The notes below the pieces were generated by a model that saw only the letters and a list, made by a program, of their open reading frames with translations, was not told where the DNA came from and searched no databases. Positions 2,148-7,920 of a DNA stretch of 64,000 nucleotides are shown here, piece by piece. A program made the position numbers and the translations under genes. Origin of the DNA: Escherichia coli (lineage in GTDB: Bacteria > Pseudomonadota > Gammaproteobacteria > Enterobacterales > Enterobacteriaceae); NCBI RefSeq assembly GCF_041886205.1, contig NZ_CP169029.1; one strand, 5' to 3'. Numbering within the stretch: the stretch's first letter is position 1; each line of letters opens with the position of its first letter.

Positions 2148-3392
2148 CTATAGCTGTTTATTCCAGAGATGCTTGAAAATATCTAATGTTGAGACAACAT
2201 TGGCAGGCGACATTCGGTTTAATGAGGGTAGAAAGGGATGAGCCTCCAGGAAGTTGATAAAACGAGTCGCGCTTGCCAACGTCGAATTCCGCATTTCATT
2301 TGCTTTCTTGTTTCCTGTAAGGTTACAAACAGCCATTGAATAATCACGGGCGGAAAATGCACGCCAGACATTATTTCTCACGCCACCACTCAAAAATAAC
2401 CGCGGCGGCGTATCATAATGAGTCGTTTTCTCGCCGCGCTCTTTCACAAAGGAAATATGGCACCGGCCTTGATGAATATGCTGCAAATTAGCCATCAGAC
2501 AACCGCCTAATATAAAGCACTCGTTATCAAGGTAGTGTTGAATATTTATAGAATATCCTTCAGTCAGTACTCTAACCAGTTCAAAATGGCGATACGCCGG
2601 AAGAACCGGTTTCACCAGCATCCCCGGATCGTTTTGATGTAATATCGCCCGACCATAATCAATATCAAATAAGGTATCACGCCGCATAGTAAGTAACTCC
2701 TTGCGTTGTACGTGATGCGCCAGTGTACCTGGAGACAAACGCTCTTCATAACTTGATGCATACTGATAATGCGACTCTACCGCTGATGGAGAATAATTTG
2801 TTGAAATAGCGACAACTCTACCGCTTTGTTCTTCTGTGGTAACAAGACTATAAAGATAGTTATTACTACCGTTAAACTTTACGCGAAAAGCACGGGTAGC
2901 TAGAGAAATATCAGAAGCAGAAGAGTACTGGCGACTTTCTTTATAGTTTACTTCCCGGGCTAGTTTTATCAATTCACGGTTAAGCCCTGTGCTATTAAGA
3001 AGTAATAATTTACGGATATCAGCAAGTGAAGCACCTTGCTCAATCATCAATGCTAACTGTGTTCTTCGCGGCGTTGTATTTACATGATCCAGAGTGATAA
3101 ATGTTCTGGAACAATGATGACAATACATTCTCCTCTGCCCTTGAGCTGAATAACCATACTTTTTCAGAGATGTGCTTCCGCAAGCTGAACATTGTGGAAC
3201 CAACCCTCGCCATGAATGATTAACACGATTACGATAAATATTAAGAGATCGTTCAGATATCACAGGAAAAAAGTAACCGCATTCCCGACATAAAATATTT
3301 TTGCCTTGTGCAATATAATCCTGGCTATTCAACAATCCCAAGTTTTTGCATCCTGGTGTTTTGCAACAATCAACATTTACGTTGGTAAACAT
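2148..3392 (-). CDS. Cys-rich hypothetical protein with N-terminal zinc-ribbon motifs (C-x2-C...C-x2-C, InsA/IS1595-like) and a possible HTH; function unknown
   Basis: ORF track 2148..3428 (426 aa); internal ATG at 3392 (MFTNVNVDCCKTPGC...) has a GGGAG Shine-Dalgarno 5 nt upstream so is the preferred start; motifs CRECG and CSACG-x20-CHHCSRTF; AT-rich codon usage. Confidence 0.6.
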   Translation of the reverse strand: MFTNVNVDCCKTPGCKNLGLLNSQDYIAQGKNILCRECGYFFPVISERSLNIYRNRVNHSWRGLVPQCSACGSTSLKKYGYSAQGQRRMYCHHCSRTFITLDHVNTTPRRTQLALMIEQGASLADIRKLLLLNSTGLNRELIKLAREVNYKESRQYSSASDISLATRAFRVKFNGSNNYLYSLVTTEEQSGRVVAISTNYSPSAVESHYQYASSYEERLSPGTLAHHVQRKELLTMRRDTLFDIDYGRAILHQNDPGMLVKPVLPAYRHFELVRVLTEGYSINIQHYLDNECFILGGCLMANLQHIHQGRCHISFVKERGEKTTHYDTPPRLFLSGGVRNNVWRAFSARDYSMAVCNLTGNKKANEMRNSTLASATRFINFLEAHPFLPSLNRMSPANVVSTLDIFKHLWNKQL

Positions 3393-3429
3393 ATTCACTC
3401 CCTGCGAATATCCGGATATTATCGTCATA

Positions 3430-3473
3430 CGTCAAAGAAAAGAACCTGATTCAATGTGTAACATTGAATCAGG
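3430..3473 (-). terminator. Probable intrinsic terminator downstream of the sulfatase gene
   Basis: Perfect 12-bp inverted repeat cctgattcaatg/cattgaatcagg (3445-3473) with 5-nt loop, followed on the minus strand by TTCTTTTCTTT. Confidence 0.5.
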
Positions 3474-3521
3474 CGGGCATAGCCCTGAAAGGCATACATT
3501 ACATTTATTATGGTTATCAGA

Positions 3522-5015
3522 TTAGCCCCAGGTTACCGCTTCCGGTTTATCACCTCTGGCTTTCATTAATGAATCATTATCAATATCGGCTTTATATTTT
3601 AAGAACTTACCATACATTTGTTTTTCAATGTCTGGATTTTTACCTATCTGATTAATAGTCTCAAAACGATCGGTTTTGAGGTTATATAGGTACTTTGGCT
3701 TATTGTTACGATCGATGATCATTTTCCAGTCACCATCACGTATCGCCCATTCGTCGGTTGGATCATCCTGGAATGGCATGTCAATTCCGAAGATTAATGG
3801 CTTTTCACGTTTTAGCGCTTTGTTCTCAAGGACAGGAACCAACGATTCGCCATCAAAAGTGCGGTCCGTCGGTAATTTGAAGTTCATCATTTTCGCCAGC
3901 GTAGGCATCCAGTCCAGACCATAAACTGGCGTATCTGAAACCATTCCCTTTGGAAGATGTTTACCGTATTTAATAATTGCCGGAACACGGATGCCGCCTT
4001 CCCAAAGATTATCCTTGCGACCACGTAATCCATCAGTTTCACCTGCCAAATTCAGTTCATAAACTTTGCGTGCTTCACGCGTTACTGGGCCGTTGTCACT
4101 GGTAAAAATTATGATGGTGTTATCTTCTTCACCCATCGCTTTAATTTTATCCAGCACTTTTCCAACCTGAGCATCCAGATAACTGATGTTGGCATAATAT
4201 TCTCCTGTACCACGCCAGGGTTTATCCGCCCAGTCGCCATAAAATAAATCAGGATGCTGCTTCTGATATTCGCTCATATATTGTGAGTACATGTCGAGGT
4301 ATTTTTTGGGCGAAGCCAGGGGACTATGTACTTCGGTAAAAGCGACATAAAGGAAGAAAGGCTTACTGTCCTTTTTGTTATCCAACCAGTTAACAACTTC
4401 CGAACTGACATACTCACCACTCATTTTATCGGAACGTGGCGTTGGTTGCCCGTTACGCAACCAACCCGTTGGATAGACCATGCCAAAACGGGGACGCTCC
4501 TTCGCATTATCCAGAGTAGCGTCGGTAACAAAACCCGCCGTATTAACCAGTGAGTAATCAAAGCCCATATCTTTTGCCTGCGGCTGATCGGTGCGATCGC
4601 CGCCTGCATTCAGATGCAGCTTACCCATCATGGCCGTGTCGTACCCTTGCGCTTTGAGTAGATTAGCAATCGTGAGTTCATTACGCCCTAATGCCACATC
4701 TTTTCCCGTTGGGATCCATGAGCGTATGCCAGTACGAAATGGCATCCGCCCTGTTAATAGTCCCGCCCGTGAAGGAGAACTTAAGGGGGCAGGTGCATAG
4801 TAGTCGGTAAATTTGACGCCTTCCCGGGCAAGCCTGTCTATATTGGGCGTTTTAACGATCTGATGTCCATATGTTGCCAAATCACCATACCCTAAATCAT
4901 CCGCCATAATGATGACTAAATTGGGTTGTTTAGTCTCGGCGGCTACGGCTGGATTAAAAGCATTCCCTGTGCAAACTGCAAGGCCGATCAAACTGGCCAT
5001 TAATGTTTTCTGCAT
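3522..5015 (-). CDS. Secreted sulfatase (arylsulfatase family), Ser-type active-site motif
   Basis: ORF track 3522..5051; ATG at 5015 with AGGA 6 nt upstream gives MQKTLMASLIGLAVCTGNAFNPAVAAE signal peptide; N-terminal DDLGYGD metal-binding motif and SSPSRAGLLTGR formylglycine signature with Ser in the modified position. Confidence 0.85.
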   Translation of the reverse strand: MQKTLMASLIGLAVCTGNAFNPAVAAETKQPNLVIIMADDLGYGDLATYGHQIVKTPNIDRLAREGVKFTDYYAPAPLSSPSRAGLLTGRMPFRTGIRSWIPTGKDVALGRNELTIANLLKAQGYDTAMMGKLHLNAGGDRTDQPQAKDMGFDYSLVNTAGFVTDATLDNAKERPRFGMVYPTGWLRNGQPTPRSDKMSGEYVSSEVVNWLDNKKDSKPFFLYVAFTEVHSPLASPKKYLDMYSQYMSEYQKQHPDLFYGDWADKPWRGTGEYYANISYLDAQVGKVLDKIKAMGEEDNTIIIFTSDNGPVTREARKVYELNLAGETDGLRGRKDNLWEGGIRVPAIIKYGKHLPKGMVSDTPVYGLDWMPTLAKMMNFKLPTDRTFDGESLVPVLENKALKREKPLIFGIDMPFQDDPTDEWAIRDGDWKMIIDRNNKPKYLYNLKTDRFETINQIGKNPDIEKQMYGKFLKYKADIDNDSLMKARGDKPEAVTWG

Positions 5016-5034: not shown

Positions 5035-5796
5035 TTAGAAATCATAACCAAGCATATAAATCATTTGATCGCCAAAACCATCGTAGCCTAACTTATTATC
5101 GAAATAACGCCACGTCACACTGGCTTTCCAGCGAGGACAGAACTTCCAGGCAACTGTTAAACCGCCATTTAGCCCATTCCGACCAAATTGTTGTTCCGCA
5201 TAGGCATCATTTCTGTCCAGTTCTATTTCATTCCAGTTAGATAAAACAAATTTTTCGTCAAATAACGTAAAAGGTAATACTGCTGTCCAACCAACAACAT
5301 AACCATTCCAGCCATTTGTTTGACCATATTTGGCTGAGACATAGTCTCCAGATTGATTATGTAATCCTATATACGGTTTAAAAAATCCCCACGAACCATT
5401 CCAGCCGAGGTAGCCCAAGCCATAAAACATATCAAGATCGTCACCCCATGAGTTATCCCATTGACCATAGATCTTGCCAAAGAAAGTCATATCGGAGTCA
5501 AAAAGTCTGACATGTGTCATAGCAGAAACGGTATGATTACGCCCCGCTACGGCATGGTTAAGCACATTGCTTTCATAAAATGAGTAAAACTCGGCTTCTT
5601 TAAAATTCACACCAAAGTCCGCAGTCACTTTCCATACTTCACCACGGTGAGTGTTAACGAAGCCACTATTCCAGTCAGCATAACCTGCATTTATTGAGCC
5701 AAAGGAACCTTTATATTCTAATGAAGAATATGCAGGAAGATGATAGATAATCGTTGTCAGGGCACACGCAATAAGAAGCCGTCTTTTGGCAGACAT
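5035..5796 (-). CDS. Tsx/OmpK-family outer-membrane channel (nucleoside-channel-like beta-barrel)
   Basis: 253-aa ORF with signal peptide MSAKRRLLIACALTTIIYHLPAYS, aromatic-rich alternating beta-strand pattern, C-terminal ...MLGYDF resembling the Tsx C-terminus; GGAGA RBS upstream of ATG at 5796. Confidence 0.75.
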   Translation of the reverse strand: MSAKRRLLIACALTTIIYHLPAYSSLEYKGSFGSINAGYADWNSGFVNTHRGEVWKVTADFGVNFKEAEFYSFYESNVLNHAVAGRNHTVSAMTHVRLFDSDMTFFGKIYGQWDNSWGDDLDMFYGLGYLGWNGSWGFFKPYIGLHNQSGDYVSAKYGQTNGWNGYVVGWTAVLPFTLFDEKFVLSNWNEIELDRNDAYAEQQFGRNGLNGGLTVAWKFCPRWKASVTWRYFDNKLGYDGFGDQMIYMLGYDF

Positions 5797-6304
5797 ATAA
5801 TATGCTCTCCATTCATTGTTTTTATGTTTCCATAGTATTCAATACATCAGATAATTCATTTTGATTAAGAACGACCCAGAAAGTATATTTAAAGGTGAAT
5901 AGCAAAGCGTGATGAAGATCGCATATTACTTTTACACCAGGGTGTGGAGGTATCGTGTTTCAAAAAGTGTGTCTATTTTAAATATCACTCATTGATTTAT
6001 AGACATTTTTTCCTTATAAAAAACACTAAATTCTGTACAAGAATATTTTGTATCTTCTATTACTTTCTCCAGTAATAACTCACCATCCAGTCATAACTTA
6101 AATCTGCTTGTTCATAATCTTAATTTTTGTAAATGAAAAGGCACATAAGAGTTAAAATAAACAATGAACTAAAGATTAATTATGCAAAAATGCGAGGCGT
6201 CTTCAGGATTAGAATCGATAAAACAGAATGGGTTAAAAAGAGCGATATAATAGCGGCGGGTGCTTGAGGCTATCTGTCTCAGGCATTAGCTGAACGGCAG
6301 ATAG

Positions 6305-6359
6305 AGAAAAGCCCCGAGTGATATTTTACTATCAACCCGAGGCCCCCTATATGCTGAAC
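6305..6359 (-). ncRNA. sokC: sokC antisense RNA of the hokC/mokC type I toxin-antitoxin locus (approximate)
   Basis: Placed by position: antisense to the mokC translation-initiation region as in hok/sok loci; not independently delimited from sequence. Confidence 0.4.
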
Positions 6360-6560
6360 ACATGTAGAGTGCCTCTTACTGACCGTAAGGTCAAGGAGAA
6401 GAGAGCAATGAAGCAGCATAAGGCGATGATTGTCGCCCTGATCGTCATCTGTATCACCGCCGTAGTGGCGGCGCTGGTAACGAGAAAAGACCTCTGTGAG
6501 GTTCACATCCGAACTGGCCAGACGGAGGTTGCTGTTTTCACGGCTTACGAATCCGAGTAA
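6351..6560 (+). CDS. mokC: MokC, overlapping regulatory reading frame of hokC
   Basis: MLNTCRVPLTDRKVKEKRAMKQHKAM... within ORF 6318..6560; shares its stop with hokC. Confidence 0.85.
   Translation: MLNTCRVPLTDRKVKEKRAMKQHKAMIVALIVICITAVVAALVTRKDLCEVHIRTGQTEVAVFTAYESE
6408..6560 (+). CDS. hokC: HokC (Gef) small membrane toxin, type I TA
   Basis: 50-aa MKQHKAMIVALIVICITAVVAALVTRKDLCEVHIRTGQTEVAVFTAYESE. Confidence 0.92.
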   Translation: MKQHKAMIVALIVICITAVVAALVTRKDLCEVHIRTGQTEVAVFTAYESE

Positions 6561-6571
6561 GAGCAACGGCG

Positions 6572-6583
6572 GGGAGTGATCCC
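6572..6583. repeat. Target-site duplication flanking IS186 (left copy)
   Basis: gggagtgatccc immediately outside the left IS end; identical 12-mer at 7921..7932; joined flanks give GGGG-N6-CCCC. Confidence 0.75.
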
Positions 6584-7920
6584 ATAAGCGCTAACTTAAG
6601 GGTTGTGGTATTACGCCTGATATGATTTAACGTGCCGATGAATTACTCTCACGATAACTGGTCAGCAATTCTGGCCCATATTGGTAAGCCCGAAGAACTG
6701 GATACTTCGGCACGTAATGCCGGGGCTCTAACCCGCCGCCGCGAAATTCGTGATGCTGCAACTCTGCTACGTCTGGGGCTGGCTTACGGCCCCGGGGGGA
6801 TGTCATTACGTGAAGTCACTGCATGGGCTCAGCTCCATGACGTTGCAACATTATCTGACGTGGCTCTCCTGAAGCGGCTGCGGAATGCCGCCGACTGGTT
6901 TGGCATACTTGCCGCACAAACACTTGCTGTACGCGCCGCAGTTACGGGTTGTACAAGCGGAAAGAGATTGCGTCTTGTCGATGGAACAGCAATCAGTGCG
7001 CCCGGGGGCGGCAGCGCTGAATGGCGACTACATATGGGATATGATCCTCATACCTGTCAGTTCACTGATTTTGAGCTAACCGACAGCAGAGACGCTGAAC
7101 GGCTGGACCGATTTGCGCAAACGGCAGACGAGATACGCATTGCTGACCGGGGATTCGGTTCGCGTCCCGAATGTATCCGCTCACTTGCTTTTGGAGAAGC
7201 TGATTATATCGTCCGGGTTCACTGGCGAGGATTGCGCTGGTTAACTGCAGAAGGAATGCGCTTTGACATGATGGGTTTTCTGCGCGGGCTGGATTGCGGT
7301 AAGAACGGTGAAACCACTGTAATGATAGGCAATTCAGGTAATAAAAAAGCCGGAGCTCCCTTTCCGGCACGTCTCATTGCCGTATCACTTCCTCCCGAAA
7401 AAGCATTAATCAGTAAAACCCGACTGCTCAGCGAGAATCGTCGAAAAGGACGAGTAGTTCAGGCGGAAACGCTGGAAGCAGCGGGCCATGTGCTATTGCT
7501 AACATCATTACCGGAAGATGAATATTCAGCAGAGCAAGTGGCTGATTGTTACCGTCTGCGATGGCAAATTGAACTGGCTTTTAAGCGGCTCAAAAGTTTG
7601 CTGCACCTGGATGCTTTGCGTGCAAAGGAACCTGAACTCGCGAAAGCGTGGATATTTGCTAATCTACTCGCCGCATTTTTAATTGACGACATAATCCAGC
7701 CATCGCTGGATTTCCCCCCCAGAAGTGCCGGATCCGAAAAGAAGAACTAACTCGTTGTGGAGAATAACAAAAATGGTCATCTGGAGCTTACAGGTGGCCA
7801 TTCGTGGGACAGTATCCCTGACAGCCTACAAAACGCAATTGAAGAACGCGAGGCATCGTCTTAACGAGGCACCGAGGCGTCGCATTCTTCAGATGGTTCA
7901 ACCCTTAAGTTAGCGCTTAT
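6584..7920 (+). mobile_element. IS186 insertion sequence (IS4 family)
   Basis: Terminal inverted repeats ataagcgctaacttaagggttg (left) / caacccttaagttagcgcttat (right); about 1337 bp; encodes InsL; ends uncertain by 1-2 bp. Confidence 0.9.
6638..7750 (+). CDS. insL: IS186 transposase InsL
   Basis: ORF 6632..7750; MNYSHDNWSAILAHIGKPEELDTSARNAGALTRRREIRDAATLLRLG... about 370 aa. Confidence 0.93.
   Translation: MNYSHDNWSAILAHIGKPEELDTSARNAGALTRRREIRDAATLLRLGLAYGPGGMSLREVTAWAQLHDVATLSDVALLKRLRNAADWFGILAAQTLAVRAAVTGCTSGKRLRLVDGTAISAPGGGSAEWRLHMGYDPHTCQFTDFELTDSRDAERLDRFAQTADEIRIADRGFGSRPECIRSLAFGEADYIVRVHWRGLRWLTAEGMRFDMMGFLRGLDCGKNGETTVMIGNSGNKKAGAPFPARLIAVSLPPEKALISKTRLLSENRRKGRVVQAETLEAAGHVLLLTSLPEDEYSAEQVADCYRLRWQIELAFKRLKSLLHLDALRAKEPELAKAWIFANLLAAFLIDDIIQPSLDFPPRSAGSEKKN

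Follow-up and report, generated by a model that had tools for sequence, protein, structure and literature searches.

An immobile, IS1-related host gene in the sulfatase operon of Escherichia coli and other Enterobacteriaceae, and its possible role as a locus-specific transcription factor

Why does a sulfatase operon end in a gene that begins like a transposase? This question is raised by a stretch of 64,000 nucleotides from the Escherichia coli chromosome (contig NZ_CP169029.1 of assembly GCF_041886205.1; hereafter the window), in which the gene order is dnaJ, IS186, mokC/hokC, a tsx/ompK-like gene, a sulfatase gene, a cysteine-rich gene referred to here as gene X, and nhaA. For X, an initial annotation had offered three options: a domesticated transposase acting as a regulator, a complete or decayed insertion sequence (IS), or a new sulfatase-associated factor. 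The analysis presented here makes it rather probable that X is an exapted IS1-family transposase acting as a locus-specific transcription factor. As proposed at the outset, X lies directly downstream of the sulfatase gene on the same strand, and its open reading frame (ORF) of 414-426 amino acids was recovered uninterrupted at 2148..3428 of the minus strand, with 426 amino acids counted from the first ATG and the stop codon at 2148-2150. Translation almost certainly begins at the ATG at 3392, which yields 414 amino acids, because a Met-Phe at this position opens 25 of 25 orthologues, the Prokaryotic Genome Annotation Pipeline (PGAP) places the start there, and the codon is preceded by a GGGAG Shine-Dalgarno sequence. 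All residue numbers given below refer to the 414-residue protein.

X was analyzed for its domain architecture. The protein consists of a zinc ribbon, a helix, an InsA-type zinc ribbon with a predicted helix-turn-helix (HTH), an RNase H-like core (residues ~158-310) and a C-terminal extension of approximately 100 residues. The cysteine motifs that had been noticed in the N-terminal part were read directly in the protein. C9-C10-x4-C15 and C35-x2-C38 correspond to the proposed CC-x4-C and first C-x2-C motifs, and the third motif, which ends in SRTF, is also present, but with a spacer of 19 instead of the proposed 20 residues (C68-x2-C71-x19-C91-x2-C94). In a family alignment of 42 members, which reaches down to 18% identity and underlies all counts out of 42, the residues C10, C15, C35, C38, C68, C71, C91 and C94 are kept in at least 93% of the members, far beyond chance. 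An AlphaFold2 model based on this alignment reached a predicted local distance difference test score (pLDDT) of 92 and a predicted template modelling score (pTM) of 0.92. The HTH proposed earlier at TQLALMIEQGASLADIRKLL (residues 111-130) overlaps helices predicted in this model at residues 108-118, 123-130 and 134-153.

The resemblance of this N-terminal module to IS1 InsA was confirmed by two profile methods. The NCBIfam model NF050000 (IS1_IS1595_Zn) matches X with 30.6 bits at a cut-off of 28, and hhalign aligned residues 65-146 of X to residues 5-89 of InsA/InsAB' with a probability of 95.6-96%; this comparison of the family profile with IS1 used one single IS1 sequence and, separately, 12 genuine IS1 transposases. 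Pfam Zn_ribbon_InsA is matched in seven of the 42 members. The suggested resemblance to IS1595 holds for the joint IS1_IS1595_Zn model, but not for the family-specific ones: Zn_ribbon_IS1595 (PF12760) gave an E-value of 0.42 for X, with no family member reaching 0.001, and the DDE_Tnp_IS1595 domain had no Pfam match in X or the family members. Beyond weak zinc-ribbon matches, Pfam returned nothing for X and the 42 members, and PHROGs gave a weak zinc-ribbon 'transposase' match and no other. Matches among PDB sequences were C2H2 zinc fingers that fit the cysteine pattern and were dismissed. Structure prediction, which had been suggested as a check for a DDE or RNase H-like fold, revealed the latter (beta1-beta2-beta3-alpha-beta4-alpha-beta5-alpha). 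As the hhalign alignment to IS1 never reached beyond residue 146, homology between the catalytic domains is supported by the fold and not by aligned sequence.

Catalytic function of this domain appears to be lost. An invariant D, D, E triad is absent, and a single column, that of E291, carries an acidic residue in 80% or more of the 42 members. In the model, the first two catalytic aspartate positions seem to be held by a conserved Thr/Ser at position 166 and a nearly invariant P262. Polar residues of the RNase H-like core are strongly conserved: R238 and H269 without exception, Y246 and E291 in at least 90% of the members. DDE domains of Pfam were found in 0 of 42 members, and the same applies to PF03400 (DDE_Tnp_IS1). 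The IS1 transposase model NF033558 has a cut-off of 100 bits, of which X reaches 28.8, and the match covers only profile positions 1-88.

Several lines of evidence show that X is not mobile. A search for terminal inverted repeats, suggested together with the initial annotation, found no inverted pair with one arm on each side of the X ORF. X is carried by 1280 of 5426 complete E. coli genomes, always on the chromosome and in exactly one copy, and was not found on any E. coli plasmid in the same survey; E. coli K-12 lacks the entire three-gene island. X is a host gene under purifying selection: 13 loci of 10 genera all have an intact ORF, and the ratio of nonsynonymous to synonymous substitution rates (dN/dS) is 0.08-0.12 at dS ~0.9-1.2, and 0.30 for the closest pair (dS 0.13). 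Matches labelled 'plasmid' or 'phage' were rejected as evidence for mobility. The listed ones are megabase-scale records or chromids, and the two loci inspected (L041 and L042) are chromosomal DNA filed as plasmids. PLSDB and INPHARED records with family members include mislabelled chromosome, for example NZ_CP092913.1, NZ_CP141089.1 and AFYI01000001.1; such cases include a linear 'plasmid' of 80 kb with katG, metF and metL and another 'plasmid' of 4.9 Mb.

Some further observations were made on the gene and its flanks. A 21-nt direct repeat with 76% identity flanks X at 2072-2092 and 3481-3501 and is probably due to chance; the copy on the right overlaps a conserved element that precedes the hairpin described below. 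E. coli harbors two deeply diverged X alleles: in 229 genomes the copy is at least 95% identical to that in the window, and in 1050, including UTI89, it is ~82% identical. With 0.91, dS between these alleles is as large as that between E. coli and E. albertii, which suggests ancient allelic lineages or recombinational replacement. In host-restricted Salmonella serovars the matching AlphaFold database entries fall short of full length (Typhi 327, Paratyphi C 247 and Dublin 375 amino acids), which may reflect pseudogenisation or fragmentary gene calls.

The position of X is strictly conserved within the Enterobacteriaceae. In 20 species X always directly follows the sulfatase or anSME gene of an operon in which the Tsx-like channel is encoded first, followed by the sulfatase, the radical-SAM/SPASM protein anSME (where present) and X as the last gene. 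These species belong to Escherichia, Salmonella, Citrobacter, Klebsiella, Kluyvera, Kosakonia, Phytobacter, Buttiauxella, Franconibacter and 'Enterobacter' pulveris, and contigs of Scandinavium and Atlantibacter show the same arrangement. The operon occurs at three or more unrelated chromosomal sites, often with an arylsulfotransferase or 5'-nucleotidase gene nearby. Only 24-34 bp separate anSME and X. In other genera the true anSME is a gene separate from X, and X itself carries no signature of an anSME: as had been stated before, no CxxxCxxC radical-SAM motif is found on direct reading, and neither Radical_SAM nor SPASM domains were matched by Pfam. An FGE-sulfatase domain (FGE/SUMF1) was likewise not detected in X by Pfam or NCBIfam. 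Four lineages have lost anSME but kept X, namely Escherichia, Phytobacter massiliensis, Klebsiella oxytoca with K. spallanzanii, and Kluyvera intermedia, and the genomes without anSME show no remnants of it between sulfatase gene and X. In E. coli the deletion is clean, joining the hairpin behind the sulfatase gene almost directly to the ribosome-binding region of X.

This hairpin had been described as terminator-like and as setting X apart from the sulfatase gene. Its existence is well supported: it has a T-tract and a folding z-score of -5.0, and none of 200 shuffled sequences folded as well. The pairing is preserved by compensatory changes across genera, for instance in CCTGATTCAATG, CCTGATCCGGTC and CCCGATCTCTC at the same position in L002 and L011-L026, and a conserved TATGCCACTTAGGGC..GCCC element precedes it (window 3444-3501). 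The proposed separation, however, does not hold. In other genera the hairpin is located between sulfatase and anSME, which gives it the appearance of an intra-operon attenuator or RNA-stability element of ancestral origin. A sigma-70 scan around X gave no more sites than shuffled sequence, and therefore no separate promoter is claimed for X.

More distant members of the family provide an indication of function. The family extends over Enterobacteriaceae, Morganellaceae, Vibrionaceae and Alteromonadales-like genera. Relatives with 20-33% identity occur in Vibrio aquaticus, Thaumasiovibrio and metagenome contigs, and their neighbours are not sulfatases. Relatives in L008 and L034 adjoin a 5'-nucleotidase gene. 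The relative in L009 lies next to deoC-A-B-D with add and a Bmp-type nucleoside ABC transporter, that in L033 next to deoB-deoD and a nucleoside:H+ symporter, that in L035 next to nupC and deoD/udp, and that in L037 next to deoD, encoding purine nucleoside phosphorylase. A second paralogue of ~375 amino acids and ~23% identity, found in Klebsiella pneumoniae (a cluster of 2053 members) and Salmonella, is divergent from a gene for an UshA-type 5'-nucleotidase between metF and metL (L039 and L041). E. coli strain KE47 harbors a relative (H54, 25.6% identity) elsewhere on its chromosome. Altogether, seven of the eight contexts outside the sulfatase operon involve genes of nucleoside or nucleotide scavenging; in the eighth (L007), a relative with 28% identity is located beside anSME on a metagenome contig of 2.7 kb. 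Divergent pairing, the classic layout of a regulator and its target, occurs in five of the seven (L008, L009, L033, L035 and L039/L041). In the other two, the relative lies on the same strand just downstream of the 5'-nucleotidase gene (L034) or the purine nucleoside phosphorylase gene (L037). As Tsx belongs to a nucleoside channel family, and in view of these seven contexts, the common denominator of the family appears from gene neighbourhoods to be nucleoside/nucleotide scavenging, to which the sulfatase module would have been added in enterobacteria. The proposed association with sulfatases thus applies throughout the Enterobacteriaceae, where it was seen in 20 species, but is specific to this lineage and does not extend to the wider family, which adjoins scavenging genes instead.

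The promoter region of the operon was examined for elements through which a dedicated regulator might act. Orthologous promoters share a CRP site, which is a perfect TGTGA-N6-TCACA in several genera and whose centre lies ~31 bp upstream of a -10-like hexamer. Upstream of it a second motif is conserved (family consensus AAAAC[AC][AC]CA-N5-TG..AC), at a centre-to-centre distance of 49 bp in most loci and 38 bp in two, a difference of one helical turn. In Salmonella and Citrobacter, the sulfatase-anSME-X operon diverges from a tsx-5'-nucleotidase operon, and a second copy of the motif on the other strand faces the latter. These second copies were excluded from building the weight matrix and score 17.5-21.2, at a chance rate of ~0.5 hits with a score of at least 12 per 20 kb of shuffled sequence. 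In the composite promoter of Salmonella (L002 4720-4980), direct reading again yields a spacing of 49 bp between the second copy and a CRP-like site. The independently scored copy and the identical spacing point to a dedicated factor that would act together with CRP at both divergent promoters. X is the sole conserved gene of the locus with a recognisable putative DNA-binding module.

From these findings the following mechanism is proposed. X has kept the front end of a transposase that is predicted to bind DNA, namely an extra zinc ribbon followed by the InsA-type zinc ribbon and HTH. InsA binds the terminal repeats of IS1 and represses transcription; X may similarly be a sequence-specific DNA-binding transcription factor. 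It would now target its own locus, at one promoter or more and probably through the motif centred 49 bp from the CRP site on the upstream side, and would act there together with CRP. The inactive RNase H-like domain and the C-terminal domain might serve in oligomerisation and/or in sensing of a ligand related to nucleosides or nucleotides, a role that R238, Y246, H269, E291 and W343 would fit. A broader version of this proposal is more tentative and regarded only as possible: the family as a whole might be a hitherto unrecognised gammaproteobacterial, exapted IS1-type family of dedicated, perhaps nucleoside-sensing factors for 5'-nucleotidase/deo/nup/Tsx modules. The sulfatase operon would then be part of the regulon, and its formylglycine enzyme would act on a nucleoside- or nucleotide-related ester and not on a classical aryl or glycan sulfate.

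Of the initially proposed domesticated regulator, the domestication is borne out by the InsA homology, the RNase H-like fold and the missing triad, whereas DNA binding and regulation by X are what we infer. Several points weigh against a regulatory role. The placement of T166 and P262 at the catalytic positions is derived from secondary structure and pattern matching, not from structural superposition. X is located at the 3' end of the operon and tightly coupled to anSME, a layout that would suit an enzyme partner equally well, and a new catalytic site would likewise be in line with the number of polar residues that are invariant in the RNase H-like domain. The motif is not assignable to X by sequence and could belong to another factor or represent a weak second CRP site as in CytR-type promoters. 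Furthermore, the weight matrix gave no convincing hits beside distant family members, so an operator shared across the whole family is not supported.

Three other explanations were weighed against a transcription factor derived from IS1. A reading of X as transposase of an IS1/IS1595-type insertion sequence, whether intact or in recent decay, is very improbable. Its zinc ribbon does match IS1/IS1595/IS1249 models, its fold is that of transposases, and many database records name its relatives 'IS1 family transposase', others 'cytoplasmic protein' or even 'lactate dehydrogenase'. The NF033558 match stays far below its cut-off and within the N-terminal part of the profile, and the catalytic domain and triad are lacking. 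The option of a complete or decayed IS is refuted by the single chromosomal copy per genome, the absence of terminal repeats, the same operon position across genera in 20 species, and a dN/dS of ~0.1. An enzyme or nucleic-acid-processing protein of nucleoside/nucleotide salvage, with a new active site formed by H269, E291, R238 and Y246 and with the zinc ribbon and HTH serving only to target nucleic acid, is unlikely. It would account for the conservation of these four residues within the core, for the consistent proximity of the family to nucleoside and nucleotide catabolic genes, and for the two loci (L034 and L037) in which the relative immediately follows an enzyme gene on the same strand. 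On the other hand, X matches no enzyme family in Pfam, NCBIfam, PHROGs or PDB sequences (PADLOC was not searched), it lacks two of the three acidic positions that bind metal in this fold, and divergent pairing with the presumed targets is more typical of regulators.

It is also quite unlikely that X is an accessory factor of sulfatase maturation or export, either as a cytoplasmic chaperone or escort presenting unfolded sulfatase to anSME or as part of a new formylglycine route. Such a factor would be expected to reside where X does in Enterobacteriaceae, always in the sulfatase operon and 24-34 bp behind anSME; the relative beside anSME on the short metagenome contig (L007) and the cysteine-rich, predicted metal-binding nature of X would fit as well. 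However, X is retained after loss of anSME in Escherichia, P. massiliensis, K. oxytoca, K. spallanzanii and Kluyvera, and around most distant relatives, as around the enterobacterial paralogues, 5'-nucleotidase, deo or nup genes are found in place of a sulfatase or anSME. In addition, the N-terminus of X is by sequence a probable DNA-binding module, and Radical_SAM or FGE signatures are absent. K-12, which lacks the X island, nevertheless matures Cys-type sulfatases, so X cannot be the system responsible.

The proposed IS1-derived transcription factor can be compared with several known systems. Like InsA and InsAB' of IS1, X combines a C-x2-C...C-x2-C zinc ribbon with a following, predicted HTH (residues 65-146 in X, 5-89 in InsA), and like InsAB' it carries an RNase H-like domain behind this module. 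As in IS1, the second catalytic position is only a short distance from the third, with 29 residues from P262 to E291 compared with ~25 in IS1 according to our reading of the IS1 sequence. In contrast to IS1, X is encoded by a single ORF of 414 codons without frameshift, has an extra N-terminal zinc ribbon and a C-terminal domain of ~100 residues, shows no detectable sequence similarity to DDE_Tnp_IS1 in its catalytic domain, and lacks the DDE triad, inverted repeats and mobility. By the tests on catalytic domain, triad, repeats and copy number, X is not an IS1 transposase. Similarity to ISCth4 of the IS256/Mutator family (PDB 6xg8) is restricted as well, with 6% sequence identity and catalytic residues that are not conserved, and the IS1249 model scores X with 18 bits against a cut-off of 300. 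In TldR, a derivative of TnpB, the DNA-targeting part has been put to use in the control of transcription. X resembles TldR and TnpA-REP/RAYT in being a transposon-derived, single-copy host gene under purifying selection, but its ancestry is of the IS1 type with a DDE/RNase H fold instead of HUH or RuvC type. Neither repetitive extragenic palindromic (REP) sequences nor guide RNAs are associated with X, which has lost its catalytic residues instead of retaining them. A functional analogy only exists to the CytR/DeoR and CRP promoters of E. coli tsx, deo, cdd and nupG. A Tsx-type channel and nucleotide or nucleoside genes are involved in both cases, and the X-operon promoters have a CRP site at ~-41 and a second element ~50 bp upstream on the same helical face. 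Unlike CytR and DeoR, X has no LacI- or DeoR-family domain, and the upstream motif is presumably unlike the operators of both proteins.

The coordinates of the features discussed are compiled in Table 1.

Table 1. Positions of gene X, its domains and associated elements in the window, and of the second paralogue in other loci.
Feature	Position	Strand	Basis
Gene X, 414 aa, probable exapted IS1-like protein	2148..3392	-	ORF; PGAP CDS in identical locus; orthologue M-F start; dN/dS about 0.1
In-frame upstream extension (426-aa reading), probably untranslated	3393..3428	-	No Shine-Dalgarno at ATG 3428; extension carried by no orthologue
First zinc ribbon, residues 9-38 (CC-x4-C ... C-x2-C)	3279..3368	-	Cys conservation at least 93% of 42; short beta hairpins in model
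InsA-type module: second zinc ribbon (C68, C71, C91, C94) and predicted three-helix HTH, residues 65-146	2955..3200	-	hhalign, NF050000, Pfam Zn_ribbon_InsA
RNase H-like transposase/integrase-fold core without DDE triad, residues ~158-310	2463..2921	-	
C-terminal four-strand and helical extension, residues 311-414, with conserved W343 and N411	2151..2462	-	Model secondary structure, conservation
Hairpin and T-tract, intra-operon, terminator/attenuator-like	3444..3474	-	14 pairs; conserved with compensatory changes
Sulfatase-family gene, motif SSPSR, upstream partner of X	3522..5015	-	
Tsx/OmpK-like outer-membrane channel, first operon gene	5035..5796	-	Pfam Channel_Tsx in orthologous loci
TATACT -10-like hexamer	5882-5887	-	
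CRP-like site TGCGATCTTCATCACG	5908..5923	-	~31 bp upstream of TATACT -10-like hexamer; aligned orthologous promoters
Conserved upstream motif, ACACACTTTTTGAAAC here, candidate operator	5957..5972	-	Centred 49 bp from CRP site
Second paralogue	L039 8001-9137; L041 5986-7110		

Differences also occur in the sulfatase that precedes X. In the comparison of L002-L031, a CSPSR motif (Cys-type) was found in every other genus examined and an SSPSR motif (Ser-type) in four of four Escherichia loci, which also belong to lineages that lost the adjacent anSME. Ser-type sulfatases need an anSME; the Escherichia enzyme may therefore depend on AslB or YdeM, stay unmodified, or have changed its chemistry. 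In the Citrobacter amalonaticus locus L029 (7244-8763) the sulfatase is matched by tblastn in two pieces, possibly due to a frameshift or as a pseudogene, while anSME and X appear intact. In Salmonella, the STM0036 region would correspond to the anSME-X part of the operon if the presumed locus tags apply. Nothing relevant was found in the literature on the presumed tags STM0034-STM0038 beyond a chromatin immunoprecipitation (ChIP) peak of SsrB. This SsrB-bound region is located at the 5' end of STM0036 (SL0037-SL0038) and was reported together with 4-fold lower expression (PMC2837388). On the other side of the operon in the window, an IS186-type transposase ORF (6632-7750 on the plus strand; region 6318-7750) adjoins mokC/hokC. 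Its location between dnaJ and mokC is apparently that of IS186A in K-12, even though the strain also harbors the sulfatase island, which K-12 lacks.

Documented cases in which bacteria recruited a transposase as a host gene are few, and TnpA-REP has been described as the first prokaryotic domesticated transposase (PMC8266576). X belongs to this small class of prokaryotic exapted transposon proteins, and literature searches found no paper on its family. The inconsistent database names of its members inflate IS counts and hide a conserved host gene. If the regulatory role of X holds true, it would be a concrete example of a DDE transposase turned transcription factor in bacteria. X would then supply the missing regulator of an uncharacterised sulfatase locus that is present in approximately one quarter of E. 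coli, including UTI89 and Shiga toxin-producing E. coli (STEC) O121, and in Salmonella, and this locus would be unexpectedly tied to nucleoside scavenging.

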